NCBI RefSeq assembly: GCF_030384885.1
Contig: NZ_CP128613.1
DNA from: Escherichia coli
GTDB taxonomy: Bacteria > Pseudomonadota > Gammaproteobacteria > Enterobacterales > Enterobacteriaceae
Reading direction: 5' to 3' (one strand)
DNA: 64,000 nucleotides
The position numbers and the translations under genes were made by a program. The notes beneath the pieces are model-generated. The model was not told where the DNA came from and did not search any database. It saw only the letters and a program-made list of their open reading frames with translations. Of this stretch, positions 6,366 through 34,324 are shown piece after piece (positions within the stretch are counted from its first letter, which is position 1; the number at the start of each line of letters is the position of its first letter).

Positions 6366-7121
6366 TCAACGCAAAATCTCACATTGATGATCCTGGATTT
6401 CCTCGGCTGAAGCACGGTTCAGCGTCAGTAGATTTCGTTGTGTCGCCAGCAACACAAACGAATTATCACTCTGCCGCACCATCGCCAGCCCGTAGCTTCC
6501 CATATGTTCCCGCGCCTCAGGCACTTCTTCTGCAAGCATCATAAATGGGCTGCGTTGTACCAGTTCGCTTTCCGTTACCCGACGCGCCAGATATTCATGC
6601 CCGCGCAAGCCACCTGGCAGCGGCAACCAGCGACTGCTGATGTTCGCCAGATTGTTATCCAGCTGTTCGCGCACATCAGGGCGAATACAAGAGATATGAA
6701 TATGAAAATGGTTTTGCGTACGTCCGGTGCGGGAGTTAATCGCTAAAGAAACCGCGCGATCGGGAACCGGCTGGCCGTATTTTTTGCTCATAAAATCACG
6801 CGCCTGCCAGGCCAACCAAAAGAAGTTCGGCGTTGAAGGATCGGTCAACAAAGGACTTTCAGTACCGTTAATACGATACGTTGGCATCAACAGATATTGC
6901 AGTGGGCCATTAAGATCTTTTAAAACCACGTATCCGGCATTAGGTTTGACTTCCGCACATGGCGAAGGATTTTGATTTTGCTGCTGATTGGGCAAACATT
7001 CCTCAAGGACAATCTTACGTAATGTATCCGACTCTTCACCGGTTAATTTCCAGTAACCAATACCGGCAGCCACAACGGCGATAACTATCATCACCAAAAA
7101 AAGAAGACCCGCTTTTTTCAT
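6366..7121 (-). CDS. cdh: CDP-diacylglycerol pyrophosphatase
   Basis: ORF 6366-7313; start set at [12 protein letters not shown] (251 aa), which avoids overlap with sbp and its terminator. Confidence 0.88.
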
Positions 7122-7176
7122 CTTTTTTTCCCTGTACCTCAAAGAGATGCAAGGGTAACGCAAAATCGTGACAAAT

Positions 7177-7208
7177 AAAAAACCCGGTCGCGAGAAACCA
7201 CCGGGTTT
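7177..7208 (-). terminator. rho-independent terminator after sbp
   Basis: Hairpin aaacccggtcgcgagaaaccaccgggttt followed on the minus strand by a T-run. Confidence 0.65.
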
Positions 7209-7227
7209 GATAATTATCCTGGGGAAA

Positions 7228-8217
7228 TCAGCGTTTGCTGATCTGATCGAACGTACCGCCGTTAGCAAAATGCTCTTTTTGCGCTTTCGTCCAGCCGCCG
7301 AACTCTTCATCAATGGTGAATAACTTCAATTTTGGAAACGCATTTTCGTACTTTTTCGCTACCTCAGCGTCGCGCGGACGGTAGTAGTTTTTCGCGGCAA
7401 TTTCCTGACCTTCTGGCGAGTAGAGATATTTCAGGTAGGCTTCCGCCACCTCTTTAGTACCTTTTTTCTCAACCACTTTATCGACCACCGACACGGTTGG
7501 CTCTGCGAGGATAGACTCACTCGGCGTGACGATTTCGAATTTATCTTTCCCCAGTTCATTCGCTGCCAGCAGAGCTTCGTTTTCCCAAGCAATCAGTACA
7601 TCGCCAATTCCGCGCTCGACAAAAGTGTTAGTGGAGCCGCGCGCGCCAGAATCCAGAACTTCGACGTTTTTATACAGTGCCCGAACAAAATCCTGCGCTT
7701 TTGCCTGATCGTTGTTGTTGTGGTGCAGCGCGTAGCCCCAGGCAGCCAGGTAGTTCCAGCGCGCGCCACCAGAGCTTTTCGGATTAGGCGTGATCACCGA
7801 AACACCCGGTTTAATCAGATCGTTCCAGTCATGGATCTGCTTCGGATTGCCCTTACGTACCAGGAAAACAATGGTGGAAGTGTACGGTGCGGAGTTATCC
7901 GGCAGACGTTTGATCCACTCTTTATCAATCCGCCCGCGTTCCGCAATTGCGTCCACGTCATAGGCCAGAGCCAGAGTGACAACATCAGCTTCAATACCAT
8001 TGATTACCGACGTCGCTTGTTTGCCTGAACCACCGTGTGACTGACGAATCACCACGTTATCGCCAGTTTGCTGTTTCCAGTGGGCGCTGAATGCCTTGTT
8101 GTACTGTTCGTACAATTCGCGCGTTGGATCATATGAAACGTTAAGAAGCTGAATATCCTTTGCCATAACGCTGGTTGCCGCCAGCAAAAATGTTAACCCT
8201 ACGCCCCACTTGTTCAT
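7228..8217 (-). CDS. sbp: sulfate/thiosulfate-binding periplasmic protein
   Basis: 329-aa ORF with signal peptide; recognised Sbp sequence. Confidence 0.93.
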
Positions 8218-8381
8218 CGCCCGACTCTCTTATGTTGTGTTGTGATGAGCAAAGCGTGCCAGAAGGTTAACCAAACATTAAAGAATAAAAAAAGATTGGC
8301 TATAACTTGCGGGTATATGTTGGGGGATTAAAAAGGCGGAAGAAATCCGCCTCATATTGCTGACAAAGTGCGCTTTGTCCA

Positions 8382-8485
8382 TGCCATATGCGGCGCGAAC
8401 GCCTTACACGGCCTACAAAAGTTTGCAAATTCAATAAATTGCAGAATTCATGTAGGCCTGATAAGCGAAGCGCATCAGGCATTTT
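8382..8485. repeat. REP/BIME palindromic cluster
   Basis: gccatatgcggcgcgaacgccttacacggcctac ... gtaggcctgataagcgaagcgcatcaggc between sbp and pfkA. Confidence 0.75.
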
Positions 8486-8536
8486 TGCTTCTGTCATCGG
8501 TTTCAGGCTAAAGGAATCTGCCTTTTTCCGAAATCA

Positions 8537-9499
8537 TTAATACAGTTTTTTCGCGCAGTCCAGCCAGTCGCCTTTGAACGGACGCTTCATGTTTTCGATA
8601 GCGTCGATGATGTCGTGGTGAACCAGCTGTTCGTTCTGGATACCTACACAACGACCGCCGTAACCTGCCAGCAGCAGTTCAATGGCGTAAGCACCCATAC
8701 GGGAAGCCAGAATACGGTCGTAAGGCACCGGAGAACCACCACGCTGAATGTGGCCCAACACAGTTGCACGGGTTTCACGACCAGTTTCTTTCTCGATGAA
8801 ATGCGCCAGTTCGTCAACATCACACATGTGTTCAGTAATCGCCACGATCGCGTGTTTTTTACCTTTCGCGATACCCGCTTTGATTTCGTTTACCAGGTCT
8901 TCACGGCTGAATTCAACTTCCGGAACTACAACGAATTCACAGCCACCGGCAATGGCCGCAGCCAGGGTCAGATCGCCACAATAACGACCCATCACTTCCA
9001 CCACGGAAATACGCTGGTGAGAAGAAGAGGTGTCACGCAGACGGTCGATCGCTTCTACAACGGTGCTCAGCGCAGTGAAGAAACCGATAGTGTAGTCAGT
9101 GCCTTTGATGTCGTTGTCGATAGTGCCCGGCAGGCCGATGCACGGGAAGCCCATTTCGGTCAGACGCATTGCACCCATGTAGGAACCGTCACCGCCGATA
9201 ACCACCAGCGCGTCGATACCACGTTTTTTCAGGTTTTCGATAGCCACAGCGCGGATGTTCTCGTCGCGGAATTCCGGGAAGCGTGCAGAACCGAGGAACG
9301 TACCGCCACGGTTAATCATGTCAGATACGCTGTAACGGTCTAGCTGTACCATACGGTCTTCATACAGACCCAGATAGCCGTCATAAATACCCATTACTTC
9401 CAGACCTTCTGTCAGCGCAGAACGAACAACCCCGCGAATTGCGGCGTTCATGCCTGGCGCATCACCGCCGCTTGTCAACACACCGATTTTCTTAATCAT
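8537..9499 (-). CDS. pfkA: 6-phosphofructokinase I
   Basis: ORF 8537-9595; start set at [23 protein letters not shown] (320 aa). Confidence 0.95.
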
Positions 9500-9679
9500 G
9501 ACTACCTCTGAACTTTGGAATGCAAAATGAAATCTGTTGCCGGAAGTCTTCTTGCACATCGAAGTGATCCAACGAATGTGCAAATAGTATAACAATCACT
9601 TCCTGCTGAATTGATTCAGGTCAGGCCAAATGGCGGTATTTTATACACAAAATGCGGGTCTGGCTCTCTTTTATACTGA

Positions 9680-10582
9680 TTATGAAAGCATAGACCGTTT
9701 ACCCTCCCTGGGTACGACGGAACAGGGGTCCTGATGGATAATCACATCCGATCCCGGAAAACGCCGTAAAATAGCCTGCTCTACCTGATCCGCCACCATA
9801 TGTGCCTGAACCAAAGGCAGAGAGTCTTCCATTTCCAAATGAATCTGAATAAAGCGGGTCGGCCCTGACTGCCGCGTGCGAAGATCGTGAGCGCCGCTAA
9901 CACCCGGCCAGGAAGTCACGATATCAATAATTTCTTGCCGTTCCTCATCAGGTAATGCGCGATCCAGTAATGACTGTACCGCCTCATATCCCATGCGTAA
10001 CGCGCTATATAAAATATAGATGCCGATTCCCAATGCAAACAGAGCATCGGCGCGATGCCAGCCGTACCAGGACAACCCCAGCGCCAGCAGAATTGCGCCG
10101 TTCATCATAACATCAGACTGGTAATGTAGCATATCAGCCCGCACCGCCTGGCTTTGCGTCCGGCGCACCACCCACCGCTGAAATGAGACAAGGATAATCG
10201 TACAAATTAGCGCCACAATTGTTACGATAACCCCGACGCCTGGATCTGTCATCGGTGTTGGAGATACCAGATGTTGAATACCCGTCAAAAACAGGAATAG
10301 TGCCGAACCGGAGATAAACATACTTTGCGCCAGCGCCGCGAGGGACTCAGCTTTACCGTGACCAAACGAGTGATTATCGTCGGCAGGTTGCAGGGAATAT
10401 CGCACCACCAGTAAATTCGTCAACGACGCGCCGATATCCACCAGCGAATCCACCAGCGCGGCGAGAATACTCACCGACCCGGTATACCACCATGCAAAAA
10501 TTTTAATCAGCAATAGCAGCGAAGCCATCGCCGTTGCAGCAATCGCCGCCCGACTGACCAGCCGTCCATAAGATTGATTCAT
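9680..10582 (-). CDS. fieF: cation diffusion facilitator Fe/Zn efflux transporter
   Basis: ORF 9680-10624; start set at [13 protein letters not shown] (300 aa); CDF family membrane protein. Confidence 0.92.
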
Positions 10583-23872: not shown

Positions 23873-24421
23873 ATGGCTGCTCTTACTGCAAGCTGTATTG
23901 CCTTGAATATTCAGGGCAATAGCGATTATTCCATTCTGAGACAGCTGGCTACAATAGCATGTCAAAATGGTTTCATTACCGATTCTCATACGTTTCTGCA
24001 GACCCTACTGCGACGCGAAAAAATGCACTCCACAGGATTTGGTTCTGGCATTGCCGTACCACACGGTAAAAGAGCCTGCGTTAAACTACCCTTCGTGTTA
24101 TTCGCCCGCAAAGCACAGGCCATTAACTGGAAAGCCAGCGACGGCTAAGGCGAAAACCTGATTGTTAATCGTCTCGCCATCCCACATGGCTGGAGCGAAC
24201 AGGAACGCCGTTTTCGTGGATTTTTTATTACCCTCGCCCAACCGCTCGAGGTGAATAACGAAGTCATTAACCATGTGTTGATCGCCTGTGCCGCCGCTGA
24301 TGCGCGCCACGAGTTGAAAATATTCAGCTCTCTGGCAAGCGTACTATGTACGTATCCGGCGGAGACTATTGCCGGGCTAACGGGATATGAAGGGTGTATA
24401 GCGTTACTTCGTCAGGAGTGA
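23873..24421 (+). pseudogene. frvA: PTS EIIA-type (frv-like) remnant interrupted by an in-frame TAA
   Basis: One frame reads ...FGSGIAVPHGKRACV...ASDG-stop(24146-24148)-GENLIVNRLAIPHGWSEQ... to 24421; two IPHG-type EIIA motifs; lies where frvABXR sits in K-12, which spans several kb. Confidence 0.5.
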
Positions 24422-24459: not shown

Positions 24460-24497
24460 GTAGGTCGGATAAAGCGTTTACGCCGCATCCGACCTTG
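24460..24497. repeat. REP element
   Basis: gtaggtcggataaagcgtttacgccgcatccgacc. Confidence 0.7.
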
Positions 24498-24522
24498 TAT
24501 TTCTCAGCAAAAATAAAAACGT

Positions 24523-25578: not shown

Positions 25579-25690
25579 TTAATTGCCTTATAAATAGATA
25601 AATAAGAGTGTGAATATAATAAATGAAAAAAGAAAATGTCACTACACGCGTTTTGTTTATAAATAAATCGATAATATTCATAAAATGAAT

Positions 25691-25725
25691 AAGTCCTGTA
25701 ATTTAATTTCTAAATCACAGGACTT
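25691..25725. terminator. hairpin between the 768-aa gene and yiiG
   Basis: Inverted repeat aagtcctgt...acaggactt flanked by T-rich sequence in AT-rich DNA. Confidence 0.45.
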
Positions 25726-25788
25726 ATTTTAACTAACGGCACAACCTTTGCGGGAGGGAGTGTCATGTCCCCCACCATTAATCATGCA

Positions 25789-28095
25789 CTACATCCCGTA
25801 GCGTTCGGCAATAGTGGCATGTTTCTCTTCATTCGCCCCGGCTTCTTTGGCGAGACGCCACCAGCACAACGGATGTTCCCAGTCAGCGGTCAATTCGTGC
25901 AAGGTCTTATCGATATCACCTTTAGAAATTGAACGCGGCGCACTGATAACAAAGTAGAATGCGGGAAGTGGCTGCGCATCTTCACCCTGATGACTGTCCG
26001 TTAACGTATAGTCGTCATTACTGTTGCTCCAGTAGTACCAGTTTCGTTCACGGAGCGCCTCACGGAAAGTATTAAACTCTTCTTCACCAGGCATGACACC
26101 TTCGCAGAACCAGGACTCGCCGTATTCGGTCGGGATAATGGTGTTCAGGCACCCATAAAGCGGAGTGAAATTCTTCCGTTCTTCCTCATCCTCTGGTTGG
26201 GTGTTCAATATTTCTGCATCGAATACCACAACTTCATCAACATGTTGCGGATAATCGGTCCGGTAAGTTGGCTCAATGATCCTTGCTGTTACCGGCCCAA
26301 TACGTTGAGCATAGTAATAGCGGTATTCATAATTTTCCCGGAAGCGGATGTTTAACAGCCCCCATTTTTCGTCAATAAAACCTTCGCCTTCCGTGAGCTC
26401 GATTTCCAGTTCAGCAGCAATAGCACGAACCAAATCCCATTGTTGCAGGATGCTGGCGGTCGCCATGATATCCCACTGGAGATTGCGAATATCTTCTTCA
26501 CGGCTAATCATCAGTTGCTGCAATTGTTGTAAATAATCCAGCTGTCGATCCCAGGCTTCCTGTTTTTGTGCTGCCCAAGAGCACATGCGATAAACGCCAA
26601 CCCACTCACGCCCTTTTTCGTGTTGCAGCAACTGTTGCCCAATCGACTCCAGTTCACTCCAGTCTTCCTGTTGGTTGAGCACTCGCGCACGGAACCACAA
26701 GGCCATATGTAGCAGCCCCGCCTGTTCATACTGCTTCGCCAGGTGCTCAATGGTTTGCAGATCGTCACGGTGGAGCAATAAATCCAACAGATCGAAGCAA
26801 AGACCATTATCTTCCTGGATGTGGCTTTCGACGTAGCGTTGCAGAAGTTCAATCGACTCATCAATCGCATTACAGGCGTTTAACGCATTGACCAGTTTGC
26901 CCAGCAATTCCGCATCATCTGGCGCGTTCAGGTAAGCGCGGCGGAATGTTTCGACGTCTTTTTCTGGATCTGGTTGCGTTTCTTCATCGCTATTTTCAGG
27001 TACTTCTACAACCGGACGAGCAAGCAACTCTGCTTCTTTGGCGGCGATTTTTTCACTCAGTTCGAGAAACTCACGATCAACCCCCAGTAACACGCGTAAT
27101 TTTGGCATGTGTCGCTGGGCCAGTTTCATCGCTATTTTGGCAACCCAGACGGATTCACGCTCCAGCGCCAGGGTAATTTGCAGTTTCGCCAGATCAACCA
27201 CTTTGCGGTGCGCTCCGGCCTGCGAGCGGTGCTCCAGCATTTTTTGGATGATGCGCGCCAGTTGCCAGTTGTTTCTTTGTGGATGACGGGGAAGTAACAC
27301 AGTAATGATTTTCAGCCATGACCCCCATGAATGGGGAGTCAGATCTGACCAACGCGGTAATTCCTCCCAGACTTCTTCGTCCTGCCCGCATAACGCCATG
27401 ATGTACAGTTTTTTGAGGTGATTACTAATGCGGTCGCGGCCCCAGTAATCATTGGCTTCTGTCAGCTCATCAATCAGTATGCGTGCTTCATCATAACGCT
27501 GAAGTTCAATCAGAATATCGGCACGAGTATAAAGTAATGCATCAATATCATCTTCCCCGGCTGCTTTAACTGCGTCGATTTGTCGATCCAGATAAGCCAA
27601 TGCCTCCTCTATTCTTTTGGAATCTATCAGTGCACTGGCATATTCAGTGGACAAACACTGAAAACAGCTCCAGGTCGGATCAATCCGCGCGATGGTTTCT
27701 TCACATACCGCCATACGTTCATTCGCCCAGCCAGGTGCATCAATATTTTCGTAGCAGGCGGATAAATCCTGGGTAACGCAGATAGATTGTGGGCAATCTT
27801 TTGTCTCTTCCCGGTGCGCTTTTTCAAACAGCGCCACTACGTCAGGCAGTACTTTTTCACCTTCTTCGCGGTTAGTCAGGCGATGGCGCATTTCCCAGTG
27901 ACCAATAAAAATCTCCAGCCACGGATTTTTTGCCACCTGGGTAAGTGCTTTTACTTCAGGTAACAGCGAATCGCACTTTTCCATTTGCAGGTGCATAACG
28001 CCTTCCGAATAATCATCGATAAGTTGCGGAATATATTCCTGCCCGGCATCGCGTAACTCCTTAGTATATTTGTGATACCACTCCCATATATCCAT
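25789..28095 (-). CDS. hypothetical 768-aa acidic, predominantly alpha-helical protein, partner of the Hsp90-like ATPase
   Basis: Long uninterrupted ORF; ATG lies 1 nt after the stop of the upstream gene with RBS aagga; sequence is helix-rich and repeat-like; no catalytic motif recognised. Confidence 0.8.
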   Translation of the reverse strand: MDIWEWYHKYTKELRDAGQEYIPQLIDDYSEGVMHLQMEKCDSLLPEVKALTQVAKNPWLEIFIGHWEMRHRLTNREEGEKVLPDVVALFEKAHREETKDCPQSICVTQDLSACYENIDAPGWANERMAVCEETIARIDPTWSCFQCLSTEYASALIDSKRIEEALAYLDRQIDAVKAAGEDDIDALLYTRADILIELQRYDEARILIDELTEANDYWGRDRISNHLKKLYIMALCGQDEEVWEELPRWSDLTPHSWGSWLKIITVLLPRHPQRNNWQLARIIQKMLEHRSQAGAHRKVVDLAKLQITLALERESVWVAKIAMKLAQRHMPKLRVLLGVDREFLELSEKIAAKEAELLARPVVEVPENSDEETQPDPEKDVETFRRAYLNAPDDAELLGKLVNALNACNAIDESIELLQRYVESHIQEDNGLCFDLLDLLLHRDDLQTIEHLAKQYEQAGLLHMALWFRARVLNQQEDWSELESIGQQLLQHEKGREWVGVYRMCSWAAQKQEAWDRQLDYLQQLQQLMISREEDIRNLQWDIMATASILQQWDLVRAIAAELEIELTEGEGFIDEKWGLLNIRFRENYEYRYYYAQRIGPVTARIIEPTYRTDYPQHVDEVVVFDAEILNTQPEDEEERKNFTPLYGCLNTIIPTEYGESWFCEGVMPGEEEFNTFREALRERNWYYWSNSNDDYTLTDSHQGEDAQPLPAFYFVISAPRSISKGDIDKTLHELTADWEHPLCWWRLAKEAGANEEKHATIAERYGM

Positions 28096-28096
28096 T

Positions 28097-29932
28097 TTAT
28101 TTTCCTTGATTAATTAAGACAGGAATAACCTGAGTAAAATCTTCCAGTGCCTGATGTAAATCCCACTGCTGTTCTTTATTACCACTGGAGCACAAAATCA
28201 CTTTCAGCGATTTTAATAACCGTAATGCTGCCGCTGGCTGTTGATGGTGTTGTAATGCCGTCACCAGTTGCATGACACAGGGGTTATTAAGATTGATATA
28301 CAGACTTGAAGTTTTAGTCTTTTGGATTTGCGAGGTAAATTGCCGCGCCAGCATTAACGCTGCGGTGCTGATGCGTTTATCTGCGTCATCCTGTTCGAGA
28401 ATTTGTTTTAATTCTGCTTCGCGGTCTGGCGTGACCACGAGCGGTAAAACCGCTGGTTCGAAGCGGGAGATAATTAATTGCTCGCCGTCGCAAAGATGCT
28501 CTTCCAGATAAGCAACCTGCTCTTCAGGTAATTCTGCCAGGCTGAACAACTGCTCATTACCCGTTTGCGTACCGACTTCGATAATCCGGCAGTGATATAA
28601 CAGCGCCCAACGACGTAAAAATGGCACCACCGCATAACGATCGCCACGGGCTACGGGCCGTTGCAGAATATGAAACAACATCTCTTCAAAACCGCCGTCG
28701 CGGCTTAACAGAATATGAATGCTGTTATTAACGCGTAAATCCTTCGCCAGCAACGCCCCTTTTGACGTTGGCACCTGCAAGCGATCTTTGAGCAAATCAA
28801 ACAGACGGTCATCACATAATGCCGCACCGAGCAACGCTTCGTTGTGGCGCATTAATACACGCCGCCAGATTTCTGGCTGATTTTGTGCGAGATCGGACAA
28901 ACCAGAAATCAGCGCCTCTTTTAACGCCTCCTGCACCGCAACCCAGGTTTCGTCCCGCTGGAGATCTTCCCGGCTCGCCGTAGGCGTTAGTTTCGATGAC
29001 TCAATCACGCCGCCAATAAATCCGGCCCAGGGAGGTAACAACTCACGCGCTTCATCATCCAGTAACATACCGCGCAAAAACAGCGACAGGTTGCGGTTAT
29101 CGCTGGTGCCGTAGGTTGCGCCATCCTGAATCCATAAAATCCCGACCGCATCGCTCATACCCGCTGGCACCACCGGAATGGTGCAAATCGGTTCAAAGGA
29201 GGATTCAAACTGGGCGGCAAAGGCGAGATTTTTACGCTGCACCAGCGCGCGGTGTATGGTTACGCCTTCGGGGGCAACTTCACGCCACGGTGGTTGAAGT
29301 TTATTTACCGGCTCGCTGGCATCGCCGACATAGACCGGTTCGTGCAGCAATATGCAGTAGCGGGAAAGAACGCGGTTCAGCAGATTATTACTCGCCAGAT
29401 GGCTGTACTCTTCTTTGAGCGTCAGAATCACCTGCGTTCCCGGCGCCGAGGACTGATGCGGCGTAACGGTATATTTTTGCCCGTCGGTAGAGTGGTATTT
29501 CCAGCTCTGATCCGGCGTTTGCCAGGATGTGGTCAACACCGTGACCTCTTTCGCCAACACAAAGGCCGACAAAAAACCGAGGCCGAACATACCAATTAAA
29601 CCGGTGTTGTCATCCTGCTGGCGCAACATTCGGGTATAACCCACGCCCACTGTCGCCAGGAAGCCGTGAATTTCGCTTTCTGTCAGACCCGCACCGGTAT
29701 CGGTAATGGTGATGGTGGACTTCGCCACGTCTGCCACTACACGAATTTGGTTATCCTTTGGCGCATCGGGCTGCTCAATCCTGCGGCGAACGATCGCATC
29801 ATGGCCGTTCTGCACCAGCTCGCGCACGGCAACTACGGGAGTGGAGTAAAGATGCTTACTGAGCACCTCAATTAAACCGTTTAAATTAACTTCTGTAGAA
29901 TATGAACTGCCAGGTAACTGTAATGTACTCAT
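28097..29932 (-). CDS. Hsp90/HtpG-like GHKL ATPase paralog (611 aa)
   Basis: Bergerat-fold motifs: N-box RELVQNGHDA, G1 box ITITDTGAGLT, G2 box GMFGLGFLSAFVLAKEVTV; length close to HtpG; in-frame stop two codons upstream of the ATG. Confidence 0.85.
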   Translation of the reverse strand: MSTLQLPGSSYSTEVNLNGLIEVLSKHLYSTPVVAVRELVQNGHDAIVRRRIEQPDAPKDNQIRVVADVAKSTITITDTGAGLTESEIHGFLATVGVGYTRMLRQQDDNTGLIGMFGLGFLSAFVLAKEVTVLTTSWQTPDQSWKYHSTDGQKYTVTPHQSSAPGTQVILTLKEEYSHLASNNLLNRVLSRYCILLHEPVYVGDASEPVNKLQPPWREVAPEGVTIHRALVQRKNLAFAAQFESSFEPICTIPVVPAGMSDAVGILWIQDGATYGTSDNRNLSLFLRGMLLDDEARELLPPWAGFIGGVIESSKLTPTASREDLQRDETWVAVQEALKEALISGLSDLAQNQPEIWRRVLMRHNEALLGAALCDDRLFDLLKDRLQVPTSKGALLAKDLRVNNSIHILLSRDGGFEEMLFHILQRPVARGDRYAVVPFLRRWALLYHCRIIEVGTQTGNEQLFSLAELPEEQVAYLEEHLCDGEQLIISRFEPAVLPLVVTPDREAELKQILEQDDADKRISTAALMLARQFTSQIQKTKTSSLYINLNNPCVMQLVTALQHHQQPAAALRLLKSLKVILCSSGNKEQQWDLHQALEDFTQVIPVLINQGK

Positions 29933-30243
29933 TTTTCAATACTCATAATCCATCACCTACTATTGAAAATACATTGCTGTTTTTTACAACCGGTGCAAGG
30001 TTTGTTATTTGCATTCACTCATCGGAAACATTTATTTATTGACGCGATGATTAAAACAAAATGTCTTATATAAATAATGATTAATTCTTAAAGGATTAAT
30101 GCGACTGGAGTATATCGATATAAACTGGAATTAACGAGATAATTTCTTGTGGTGAAATTATTATTTAAATGCTGAATAATATATTGAGGATTATTTAATA
30201 GAAAAATAAAACCGCAATCCAGAATCAGAATTGCGGTATTTCT

Positions 30244-31080
30244 TTAATTATGAATCAAACGCTGCGGATGGGTATAAACCGTTGCCCGACCCGGCTTACA
30301 AAAGCCCACCAGCGTCAAATTACAGCGCTCAGCCACTTCTACGGCAAGCGTGGTCGCGGCAGACACCGCAAACAAAATTTCTACGCCGCACATCGCTGAC
30401 TTTTGCACCATTTCATAACTGGCACGACTGGAAACCAGCACCGCACCTTGATGCCAGCTTTCCCCTTCTTGTGACCGGCGGCCTAACAGTTTATCCAGCG
30501 CCACATGGCGACCCACGTCTTCATGCCCGCCTACCAGTTCGCCAGATGGCAACATCCAGGCAGCGGCGTGAGTACAACCAGTCAGTTGCCCCACTGGCTG
30601 GAAATCATTGAGATGGCGTAATGCATCATCCAGTTTGTTGAGATCAAATGTCTGAGTGAACGGCAGCGGCTGCACCGGTTTACCGATGTCATTAAGTTGC
30701 TCCACGCCGCACACGCCACATCCCGTACGTCCCGCCAGTGCCCGACGACGCTCCTTCAACCCCATAAAGCGGCGGCTGGAAAGCTCAATTTGCACTTCCA
30801 GACCATTACAGGAAGGAACGACATCCATGCCAAAGATATCGCGCGGACTTTCGATAATCCCCTCGGAAAGCGAAAAACCGAGCGCAAAGTATTCAAGGTC
30901 TTTGGGCGACGCCATCATCACCACATGCGAAATGCCGTTGTAGACCAGCGCAACGGGAACCTCTTCCGCCACCTCATCTAACCGTGGGTGTTGTAAATCG
31001 TCACGCCGCCATAACTCAATTTGACGAACACCTGTGACATTTGTCACATTTTTGATTTCTTTTTGCTGTGTTTTTTTCAC
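30244..31080 (-). CDS. fdhD: formate dehydrogenase sulfurtransferase/accessory protein
   Basis: 278-aa ORF; recognised FdhD sequence (GRTGCGVCG motif); divergent from fdoG. Confidence 0.92.
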
Positions 31081-31273
31081 TTTCTATTAACCGGATAAGA
31101 ACACACACACCAACATTATGGTATTCTGTTACAAACCCTTCCTGGATGGAGGGAAATTGAGCCAATTCTGGACCTTTGCGGCCCCTTCCGCAAAGAAAAA
31201 TAACTCCCACTCCCTGCACACGCAGCAAGCGAATGTAAATGGGACGTGACAATGTCGAAACAAGGAGCAATCC

Positions 31274-34200
31274 ATGCAGGTCAGCAGAAGGCAGTTCTTT
31301 AAGATCTGCGCTGGCGGTATGGCAGGCACCACGGCAGCGGCACTGGGTTTTGCACCCAGCGTAGCACTCGCGGAAACCCGGCAGTATAAACTGCTGCGCA
31401 CCCGCGAAACCCGTAATACCTGCACCTATTGTTCCGTAGGCTGTGGGCTGTTGATGTACAGCCTCGGTGACGGAGCAAAAAACGCCAAAGCATCTATCTT
31501 CCATATCGAAGGTGACCCGGATCACCCGGTCAACCGCGGTGCACTTTGTCCGAAAGGCGCTGGCCTGGTGGATTTCATCCACTCCGAAAGCCGTCTGAAG
31601 TTCCCGGAATACCGTGCCCCTGGTTCTGATAAATGGCAGCAAATCAGTTGGGAAGAAGCGTTTGATCGCATCGCCAAATTGATGAAAGAAGACCGCGATG
31701 CTAACTACATTGCGCAAAACGCCGAAGGCGTGACTGTTAACCGCTGGCTCTCCACCGGAATGCTGTGTGCTTCCGCGTCGAGTAACGAAACCGGCTATTT
31801 AACGCAAAAATTCTCCCGCGCGCTGGGTATGCTCGCGGTCGACAACCAGGCGCGTGTCTGACACGGACCAACGGTAGCAAGTCTTGCTCCAACATTTGGT
31901 CGCGGTGCGATGACCAACCACTGGGTCGACATCAAGAACGCCAACCTCGTCGTGGTGATGGGCGGTAACGCCGCTGAAGCTCACCCGGTCGGGTTCCGCT
32001 GGGCGATGGAAGCCAAAATTCACAACGGCGCGAAGCTGATTGTGATCGATCCTCGCTTTACGCGTACGGCGGCGGTGGCTGACTACTATGCCCCTATTCG
32101 TTCCGGTACTGACATTGCTTTCCTGTCAGGCGTATTGCTGTACCTGCTGAACAATGAAAAATTCAACCGCGAATACACCGAAGCCTATACCAACGCCAGC
32201 CTGATCGTGCGTGAGGATTACGGCTTTGAAGATGGCCTGTTCACCGGCTACGACGCGGAAAAACGCAAGTACGATAAATCCAGCTGGACCTACGAGCTGG
32301 ACGAAAACGGCTTCGCCAAACGCGATACCACGCTGCAACATCCGCGCTGCGTGTGGAACTTGCTGAAACAGCACGTTTCCCGTTATACGCCAGATGTGGT
32401 TGAAAACATCTGTGGCACGCCGAAAGACGCGTTCCTGAAAGTCTGCGAATACATCGCAGAGACCAGTGCTCACGATAAAACTGCCTCGTTCCTTTACGCG
32501 CTCGGCTGGACGCAACACTCCGTTGGTGCGCAGAACATTCGTACGATGGCGATGATCCAGCTACTGCTCGGCAATATGGGGATGGCAGGCGGCGGCGTTA
32601 ACGCCCTGCGCGGTCACTCCAACATTCAGGGGCTGACGGACCTGGGGCTGCTGTCGCAGAGCCTGCCAGGTTACATGACGCTGCCAAGCGAGAAGCAGAC
32701 CGATCTGCAAACCTACCTTGCCGCCAATACGCCGAAACCGCTGCTGGAAGGCCAGGTTAACTACTGGGGCAATTACCCGAAATTCTTCGTCTCCATGATG
32801 AAGGCCTTCTTTGGTGATAAAGCGACGGCAGAAAACAGCTGGGGCTTTGACTGGTTGCCGAAGTGGGATAAAGGCTACGACGTCCTGCAATACTTCGAGA
32901 TGATGAAAGAGGGCAAGGTCAATGGCTATATCTGCCAGGGCTTTAACCCTGTTGCCTCATTCCCGAACAAAAACAAAGTGATCGGTTGTCTGTCGAAACT
33001 GAAGTTCCTCGTCACTATCGACCCGCTGAACACTGAAACCTCTAACTTCTGGCAGAACCACGGTGAGCTGAACGAAGTGGACTCGTCGAAGATCCAGACC
33101 GAAGTGTTCCGTCTGCCATCGACCTGCTTCGCGGAAGAGAACGGTTCAATCGTTAACTCCGGTCGCTGGTTGCAGTGGCACTGGAAAGGTGCGGACGCCC
33201 CAGGGATTGCGCTGACTGATGGCGAGATCCTCTCCGGTATCTTCCTGCGCTTGCGCAAGATGTACGCCGAACAGGGTGGCGCGAACCCGGACCAGGTGCT
33301 GAACATGACCTGGAACTACGCCATCCCGCATGAGCCGAAGTCGGAAGAAGTGGCGATGGAGAGCAACGGTAAGGCGCTGGCCGATATTACCGATCCGGCA
33401 ACCGGGGCGGTTATCGTCAAGAAAGGCCAACAACTTAGCTCGTTCGCCCAACTGCGCGATGACGGTACCACCTCCTGTGGCTGCTGGATTTTCGCCGGTA
33501 GCTGGACGCCAGAGGGCAACCAGATGGCACGCCGTGATAACGCCGATCCGTCTGGCCTCGGTAACACGCTGGGCTGGGCATGGGCATGGCCGCTTAACCG
33601 CCGCATTCTGTATAACCGCGCCTCCGCAGATCCGCAGGGTAACCCGTGGGATCCGAAGCGTCAGTTGCTGAAATGGGACGGCACCAAATGGACCGGCTGG
33701 GATATTCCGGACTACAGCGCAGCGCCTCCGGGCAGTGGCGTCGGGCCGTTTATCATGCAGCAGGAAGGCATGGGGCGTCTGTTTGCCCTCGATAAGATGG
33801 CGGAAGGTCCGTTCCCGGAACACTACGAGCCGTTTGAAACGCCGCTGGGAACTAACCCACTGCATCCAAACGTTATCTCGAACCCGGCGGCGCGAATCTT
33901 TAAAGACGATGCCGAAGCATTGGGTAAAGCCGATAAGTTCCCGTATGTCGGAACCACCTATCGTCTGACCGAGCACTTCCACTACTGGACCAAACACGCG
34001 CTGTTGAATGCGATTTTGCAGCCAGAGCAGTTTGTGGAAATCGGGGAGTCGCTGGCGAATAAACTTGGCATTGCCCAGGGCGATACCGTGAAAGTCTCCT
34101 CCAACCGTGGCTATATCAAAGCCAAAGCGGTGGTGACCAAACGTATTCGTACGCTAAAAGCGAACGGCAAAGATATCGATACCATCGGTATTCCGATTCA

Positions 34201-34324
34201 CTGGGGCTATGAAGGTGTTGCGAAAAAAGGCTTTATTGCCAACACGTTAACGCCATTCGTTGGTGATGCGAACACGCAGACGCCGGAGTTTAAGTCCTTC
34301 CTTGTGAATGTGGAAAAGGTGTAA
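31274..34324 (+). CDS. fdoG: formate dehydrogenase-O catalytic subunit (selenoprotein; in-frame UGA at 31859-31861)
   Basis: ORFs 31274-31861 and 31910-34324 share one frame and are joined through TGA (..DNQARV-U-HGPTVASLAPTFG..); twin-arginine signal MQVSRRQFFKICAGG; 1016 codons. Confidence 0.93.
31859..31910 (+). promoter_or_regulatory. UGA(Sec) codon plus downstream SECIS-type stem-loop
   Basis: Directly 3' of the in-frame UGA, as bacterial SECIS elements are; the fold was not computed. Confidence 0.6.

Follow-up and report, generated by a model that had tools for sequence, protein, structure and literature searches.

A tetratricopeptide repeat protein co-inherited with a long-branch Hsp90 paralog is a candidate dedicated helper of a bacterial Hsp90

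In eukaryotes, tetratricopeptide repeat (TPR) co-chaperones of the Hop/Sti1, PP5, CHIP, FKBP51/52 and Tah1 class dock through a three-repeat carboxylate-clamp TPR domain onto the C-terminal MEEVD peptide of Hsp90. For bacterial Hsp90/HtpG no cochaperone had been identified according to a 2021 paper (PMC7926864), and of the additional bacterial paralog groups B and C, defined by Chen in 2006 (PMC1525184), the hsp90B and hsp90C paralogs were explicitly ignored in the 2013 co-evolution study of Press (PMC3708813). Here we analyse a 64,000-nucleotide stretch of an Escherichia coli chromosome (contig NZ_CP128613.1 of assembly GCF_030384885.1; hereafter the window), 100% identical to strain 2013C-4282 (NZ_CP027579.1), in which an open reading frame (ORF) for a TPR protein of the PA1069 family, hereafter the partner (25789..28095, minus strand, 768 aa plus stop), is preceded directly by the gene for an Hsp90-family ATPase (28097..29932, minus strand, 611 aa). 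The two genes are near-obligately linked in both directions and co-inherited, and on balance we consider it probable, from the sequences and a structural model, that the partner is a dedicated adaptor or co-chaperone of this long-branch Hsp90 paralog, the two forming a two-component machine.

In Pseudomonas aeruginosa the pair corresponds to PA1068/PA1069 (Q9I4Q5, annotated hypothetical), orthologues with the same gene order and about 41% (partner) and 57% (ATPase) identity, which we equate with the pair on the basis of gene order and the literature (PMC4053335). PA1069 has been detected in proteomes and called operonic with the Hsp90 gene, and its abundance is EfhP/Ca2+-dependent and changes with biofilm conditions (PMC4053335); it is also listed in a BatR pull-down (PMC13411936). 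Our literature search found no paper describing the ATPase and partner as a system.

Full-length partner homologues of 750-790 aa were found in many bacterial lineages, and this recurrence at the same length indicates that the ORF is a real gene. To characterize its linkage to the ATPase, we first took the partner as seed in one genome per species and sought the ATPase by tblastn at 80 loci. At 73 of these the ATPase lay directly 5' of the partner in the same orientation, three being clipped by the start of the locus; among the others, one locus had both genes truncated, four had no upstream DNA, and one, from Thorsellia, had room upstream but lacked the ATPase. The truncated ORFs (317 and 401 aa), from Xanthomonas axonopodis DSM 3585 (L081, about 6500-10300), are probably pseudogenes, given that both are shortened. 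In the reciprocal scan, seeded with the ATPase in metagenomes, the partner was missing downstream at none of the 54 loci that could be evaluated, all of which extend 2.4 kb or more past the ATPase; on shorter contigs the start of the partner was visible wherever downstream DNA reached at least about 570 bp. The intergenic distance in other lineages ranges from -4 to about +50 nt, on the same strand throughout, with two metagenome lineages of 68-69% GC carrying 2.7-3.2 kb between ATPase and partner (L140, 4036-6738; L145, 3343-6518); these inserts are mutually unrelated and gave no family matches. Clustering of all ORFs from 81 loci revealed no third gene common across genera beyond genus-level synteny. 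The linked pair spans Proteobacteria, Acidobacteria and Chloroflexi-like contigs, and the pairwise identities of ATPase and partner correlate with r = 0.98.

In the window itself, one base separates the ATPase stop codon TAA from the ATG of the partner, with a Shine-Dalgarno sequence, AAGGA, located 7 nt 5' of this ATG within the 3' coding end of the ATPase gene. The translational coupling proposed in the initial annotation is borne out by this arrangement, as is its description of the partner as acidic and helix-rich, with an isoelectric point of 4.71, a net charge of -61, and 28 predicted helices.

We next considered the identity of the ATPase. Pfam searches returned HATPase_c_3 and HSP90, and the closest PDB matches were TRAP1 (1e-29) and HtpG (5e-27) over residues 10-359. 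The catalytic Glu (E38), Mg-binding Asn (N42), adenine-binding Asp (D45), DxGxG and GxxGxG motifs and R321 are all conserved, and the segments RELVQNGHDA, DTGAGLT, GMFGLGFLSAF and TASREDLQ align to TRAP1/HtpG motifs and are invariant in 20 orthologues. The protein therefore has the GHKL Bergerat motifs and middle-domain catalytic Arg that define the Hsp90 family, an N-terminal GHKL domain and middle domain being shared with HtpG (Hsp90A) and hsp90B/hsp90C, and we propose that it is a catalytically competent GHKL/Hsp90 clamp. As candidates for a closer assignment, HtpG (NF003555, 197 bits against a cut-off of 371) and the NCBIfam HSP90 family NF010683 (PRK14083, 288 bits against 455, residues 13-571) were both rejected as equivalogs, their scores falling under the curated cut-offs. 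These profile results mark the ATPase as a distinct Hsp90 paralog clade, which we place among the long-branch bacterial paralogs, with group B, group C or 'HSP90-like' as possible affiliations. Unlike HtpG, for which no cochaperone is known (PMC7926864), the ATPase here is paired with the partner.

To examine the fold of the partner, an AlphaFold2 model was built on 35 homologues. The full-length model (mean predicted local distance difference test score, pLDDT, 91.9) places its 28 helices over residues 1-561 in an alpha-solenoid and resolves three modules: an N-terminal helical module (1-160), two TPR arrays (161-562) and an alpha/beta C-terminal domain (576-768). From the single sequence, Pfam gave only weak TPR_12 and TPR_19 matches at residues 150-215, all below threshold; among the 35 homologues, nine passed TPR_19 at E<=0.001. 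With the family profile, residues ~375-535 matched PDB entries for TPR proteins, with E values from 8.5e-38 to 1e-5, led by an engineered TPR (8.5e-38) and a consensus TPR (1e-22) and including OGT, SRP72 and APC/C subunits, and residues ~154-280 matched TPR/PPR proteins. Foldseek comparison of the full model to the PDB returned generic TPR scaffolds only. Since family profile, homologue Pfam matches and Foldseek all agree, the repeats, which the initial annotation had left as TPR- or HEAT-like, can be assigned to the TPR superfamily, whose tandem ~34-aa helix-turn-helix units are recognised here by TPR profiles. The arrays are joined by an acidic linker, in which pLDDT drops below 50 over residues 365-371 of the model (366-372 of the protein), with six D/E but no K/R, at which one homologue (P0053) carries a large insertion.

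The N-terminal module, overlooked in the initial annotation, proved to be the most constrained part of the partner. Its four cysteines, C101, C106, C144 and C147, are conserved in 98-100% of 206 full-length homologues, and conservation of at least 95% in the same set extends to W6, E47, W59, H66, W67, P102, Q103, D110, D119, G122 and E151. In the model, the C-x4-C and C-x2-C pairs each lie at or within the first turn of a helix (102-135 and 143-158, respectively); the placement of near-invariant cysteine pairs at helix starts suggests a structural or sensing metal site, putatively binding Zn. Among divergent pairs, mean pairwise identity is 59% for the N-terminal module and likewise 59% for the ATPase, compared with 37% for the TPR arrays and 44% for the C-terminal domain. 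Because module and ATPase evolve at the same rate, we infer that this module is the part of the partner constrained by the ATPase. Searches against Pfam detected TPR families only and no family specific to the module, its profile had no match in the PDB, and profile searches elsewhere recovered only fragments of the partner's own family. The two cysteine pairs, ~37 residues apart in a chaperone-associated protein, are reminiscent of the Cys4 redox switch of Hsp33, although metal binding in the partner is putative, and the combination of TPR repeats with a putative Cys4 site recalls LapB/YciM (TPR plus rubredoxin), to which the match is weak and restricted to the TPR part (7wzb_B, E 8e-05). Unlike the Hsp33 C-terminal domain or the LapB rubredoxin fold, the cysteines of the partner reside in an N-terminal alpha-helical module.

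The C-terminal region had been described as compositionally different and as a possible effector or sensor domain of ~150 residues. A distinct domain is indeed present, but it comprises about 190 residues; modelled alone it folds equally well (pLDDT 94.9), and its composition (15% aromatic, 6% Leu) departs from that of the TPR arrays (6.5-8% aromatic, 15% Leu). Its invariant residues (R557, P601, A604, G666, P669 and Y696) are all structural, and no conserved catalytic-type residues were found across homologues. A hidden Markov model (HMM) of the domain, searched against 1.84 billion protein representatives, yielded 432 matches, and the best 150 of these were all proteins of 750-790 aa with the domain at the C-terminus, or fragments of such proteins; fusions to other partners, which the initial annotation had suggested seeking, were absent from these 150. 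Given this uniform architecture and the lack of catalytic residues, neither domain shuffling nor a role as effector is supported.

By sequence, the domain has no relative in the PDB. Its closest folds belong to small families linked to polymorphic-toxin immunity proteins, such as 5ueb, a hypothetical Neisseria protein for which a remote relationship to DUF2314/Imm34 has been reported; 5ueb and DUF4265 are 9-10% identical to the domain and, unlike it, are small stand-alone or immunity-type proteins. No member of the partner family matched DUF4265 (PF14085) or the DUF2314/Imm34 families in Pfam. Membership of DUF2314/Imm34 was considered and rejected: there was no similarity to PF10077 or YegJ-like profiles, and hhalign of the domain against a YegJ/DUF2314 alignment gave a probability of 0.2%, that is, no homology. 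In E. coli K-12 (L086, 2147674-2153128), yegJ (DUF2314/Imm34) itself adjoins the Hsp70 paralog yegD, the yegI kinase, the pphC phosphatase and yegL (vWA), a cluster in which another chaperone paralog is embedded among small binding-domain proteins.

Taken together, these features are compatible with a mechanism in which the ATPase would serve as a catalytically competent clamp and the partner as a long TPR solenoid scaffold. The N-terminal Cys4 module, probably Zn-stabilised, would dock on or regulate the ATPase without an EEVD clamp, and the faster-evolving TPR arrays and C-terminal alpha/beta domain may bind client or ligand, so that the whole would use ATP to remodel proteins in a chromosomally encoded housekeeping or stress function. 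Such a mechanism implies that ATPase and partner would form a physical complex, that the N-terminal module is the likely interface with the ATPase, and that the partner probably functions as a chaperone adaptor. The partner resembles eukaryotic TPR co-chaperones in being a TPR protein tied to an Hsp90 ATPase, with additional non-TPR domains that by analogy may serve clients or other activities; it differs from them in its ~560-residue solenoid, its Cys4 module, its family-specific C-terminal domain and its operonic arrangement with the ATPase.

Several observations weigh against an adaptor role. No EEVD-like acidic peptide was found at the C-terminus of the ATPase: over the last 60 residues of 18 representative orthologues, taken from a 70-sequence alignment, the tail is variable and non-acidic, and the only conserved element is an internal amphipathic 'LNxAL' helix. 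Docking of the eukaryotic type is thereby excluded, and the analogy to eukaryotic co-chaperones drawn in the initial annotation fails at its defining point; the EEVD-clamp co-chaperone class was likewise rejected for the pair, the chaperone lacking a conserved (M/I)EEVD tail. A classical heat-shock role is also unlikely, as no sigma-32 promoter consensus was found in the window and the PA1069 transcript is about 4-fold lower at 46 C (PMC4957987). Furthermore, about 95% of E. coli do without the pair, and operon linkage would be expected just as well if the partner were the client, or if the pair were a non-chaperone ATPase-sensor system. Finally, the initial annotation had singled out genomes carrying the partner gene without the ATPase as evidence against the partnership, and two such local exceptions exist, set against about 75 linked genome loci: full-length homologues in Thorsellia anophelis (L065, 4755-7061; 33% identity) and Nonomuraea gerenzanensis (L085, 4995-7271; 25% identity) have no Hsp90-like gene in the available flanks. 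The genes upstream of the Thorsellia homologue are phosphoribosyl pyrophosphate (PRPP)-synthetase-like and NadV-like.

Among the alternatives, the one that survives best, while still unlikely in our judgement, is that the partner is the principal client of the ATPase or a regulatory sensor, either a putative Zn/thiol redox or metal switch that gates the ATPase, or a solenoid that needs the ATPase to fold or assemble. The concentration of four near-invariant cysteines in the most conserved module, the evolution of that module at the rate of the ATPase, the uniform architecture without domain shuffling, and the response of PA1069 abundance to Ca2+/EfhP and biofilm conditions (PMC4053335) would all fit such a role, and the C-x4-C ... 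C-x2-C pattern loosely recalls the Hsp33 zinc centre. Conversely, the invariant cysteines give no measurable covariation and the Zn site is putative, no conserved neighbouring gene relates to redox or metal functions, and a 560-residue TPR scaffold with an additional binding-type domain is a combination more usual in adaptors than in clients.

We regard as improbable a second alternative, in which the genes constitute a two-gene conflict or anti-phage system with the GHKL ATPase as motor or effector and the TPR protein sensing a phage component. GHKL domains occur in defence proteins, and immune systems commonly employ TPR sensors. The pair is moreover a compact two-gene module, present between fdhD and yiiG in 246-254 of 5,426 complete E. 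coli genomes (about 4.7%), with fdhD and yiiG 152 bp apart in the others; the N-terminal domain of the ATPase weakly matches Tiamat TmtA of PADLOC (E 5e-06) and has NCBIfam matches to BbrUII-type restriction enzymes; and the folds closest to the C-terminal domain are those linked to toxin immunity, such as 5ueb. However, the weak ATPase matches in PADLOC-DB v2 (TmtA, type II restriction enzyme) cover the generic GHKL fold only, the partner has no match there, and hhalign, as described above, does not relate the C-terminal domain to DUF2314/Imm34. No effector domain, whether nuclease, protease, TIR, pore-forming or of another type, is present in either protein, and the ATPase remains 52-62% identical to the E. 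coli protein across classes (31-41% for the partner), unlike fast-diversifying immune genes. Assignment to a known defence system was rejected, no system-specific HMM of PADLOC-DB v2 being matched, and in the DefensePredictor paper and supplements, accessions and HATPase terms did not match the pair.

The genomic distribution of the pair also argues against a defence role. Plasmid and phage collections are practically devoid of the pair: among the three records labelled 'plasmid' are a Nonomuraea replicon of 11.85 Mb and a P. aeruginosa replicon of 847 kb that carries core-type genes (antiporter, liv/bra, flg), and the sole 'phage' record is a Salmonella whole-genome shotgun contig. The chromosomal setting, by contrast, is stable across genera. 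The arrangement fdhD-[pair]-yiiG is common to E. whittamii, other Escherichia species and Superficieibacter, and Salmonella Infantis likewise has the pair in the fdhD-rha region, there separated from fdhD by additional genes. Based on this synteny across genera and the unremarkable GC content of the region, old vertical inheritance with repeated loss fits better than a mobile island. Elsewhere, the P. aeruginosa orthologues lie between a LysR regulator and bra/liv and flg genes, synteny around the pair extends over about 26 Xanthomonas species, the pair belongs to the core chromosome in Stenotrophomonas, and in Holophaga, Budvicia, Phytobacter and others it is flanked by unrelated housekeeping genes.

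That adjacency is mere operonic convenience between proteins of unrelated processes, as the two exceptions without ATPase and the 2.7-3.2 kb inserts in two metagenome lineages might imply, is highly improbable in view of near-obligate linkage both ways across Proteobacteria, Acidobacteria and Chloroflexi-like contigs, the co-divergence of the two proteins, and the lack of any other conserved neighbour.

In E. coli, the two genes form a self-contained unit consisting of the fdhD terminator, a 311-bp AT-rich leader, the ATPase and partner genes, and a long hairpin terminator (Table 1). The terminator-like hairpin after fdhD may insulate the operon from upstream transcription. Within the leader no convincing sigma-70 match was found on the minus strand, and the upstream intergenic region gave no Rfam family match.

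Table 1. Features of the ATPase-partner locus, in window coordinates.
Feature	Position	Strand	Basis or remark
Long terminator-like hairpin 3' of partner gene	25688..25728	-	K-12 homologous hairpin directly follows fdhD
C-terminal alpha/beta domain of partner, family-specific, aa 576-768	25792..26370	-	
Second TPR array, aa 377-562	26410..26967	-	Profile matches 375-535; Foldseek
Acidic disordered linker, aa 361-376, length variable among homologues	26968..27015	-	pLDDT, composition
First TPR-like array, aa 161-360	27016..27615	-	TPR/PPR profile matches ~154-280; helical hairpins in model
Conserved N-terminal helical module, aa 1-160	27616..28095	-	Most conserved partner segment
Four near-invariant Cys, C101 and C106 (CPQSxC), C144 and C147 (CxxC); putative metal (Zn) site	27655..27795	-	
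Stop/start junction TAAaATG, 1-nt spacer	28093..28099	-	Sequence read directly
Hsp90-family ATPase, 611 aa, long-branch paralog, not HtpG equivalog	28097..29932	-	NCBIfam, Pfam, PDB profiles
AT-rich intergenic region 5' of two-gene operon, promoter presumed here	29933..30210	-	Between fdhD terminator and ATPase start
Terminator-like hairpin after fdhD	30211..30237	-	10-bp stem, then T-run

A degenerate direct repeat of ~25 nt, derived from the 3' end of fdhD, borders the two-gene unit (25728-25753 and 30243-30268). This repeat is single-copy in K-12, where the hairpin terminating fdhD is the counterpart of the one located 3' of the partner gene in the window. The repeats could be the scar of an ancient insertion or a substrate for deletion; beyond them, the borders of the pair carry no insertion signature in the form of an integrase, insertion sequence or tRNA.

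Further features were identified in the flanking genes. The frv operon between rhaM and yiiG survives in this strain only as two short pseudogene remnants (23873-24421, plus strand), one from the N-terminal part of a phosphotransferase system (PTS) fructose IIA gene and the other from the C-terminal part of frvR, and just 3' of yiiG (24463-24503, plus strand) lies a sub-threshold Rfam match to naRNA4, a REP-like element. On the other side, fdoG/fdnG (31274-34324, plus strand) is split in the ORF list (31274..31861 and 31910..34324) at an in-frame TGA, the selenocysteine codon of formate dehydrogenase, and its leader (31105-31303) contains a sub-threshold match to the Rfam family FdoG1_thermometer.

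Returning to the adaptor reading, we consider the partner the strongest candidate to date for a helper dedicated to a bacterial Hsp90. What is new is an Hsp90-TPR partner that is bacterial, operon-encoded and EEVD-independent, with two unclassified modules, and the question of whether a bacterial Hsp90 lacking an EEVD tail can have a dedicated adaptor becomes testable on two genes in model pathogens. The analysis also supplies a working hypothesis for the uncharacterised PA1068/PA1069, and for a pair found also in Xanthomonas, Stenotrophomonas, some E. coli and Salmonella. More tentatively, and with considerable doubt, the pair may represent the first case of a bacterial Hsp90 served by its own co-chaperone system, built on a Zn-stapled and possibly redox- or metal-sensing TPR adaptor that would dock through its Cys4 module and deliver clients through its TPR arrays and C-terminal domain. 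If this is true, the partnership of TPR proteins with Hsp90 would have arisen in bacteria independently of, or much earlier than, that in eukaryotes.

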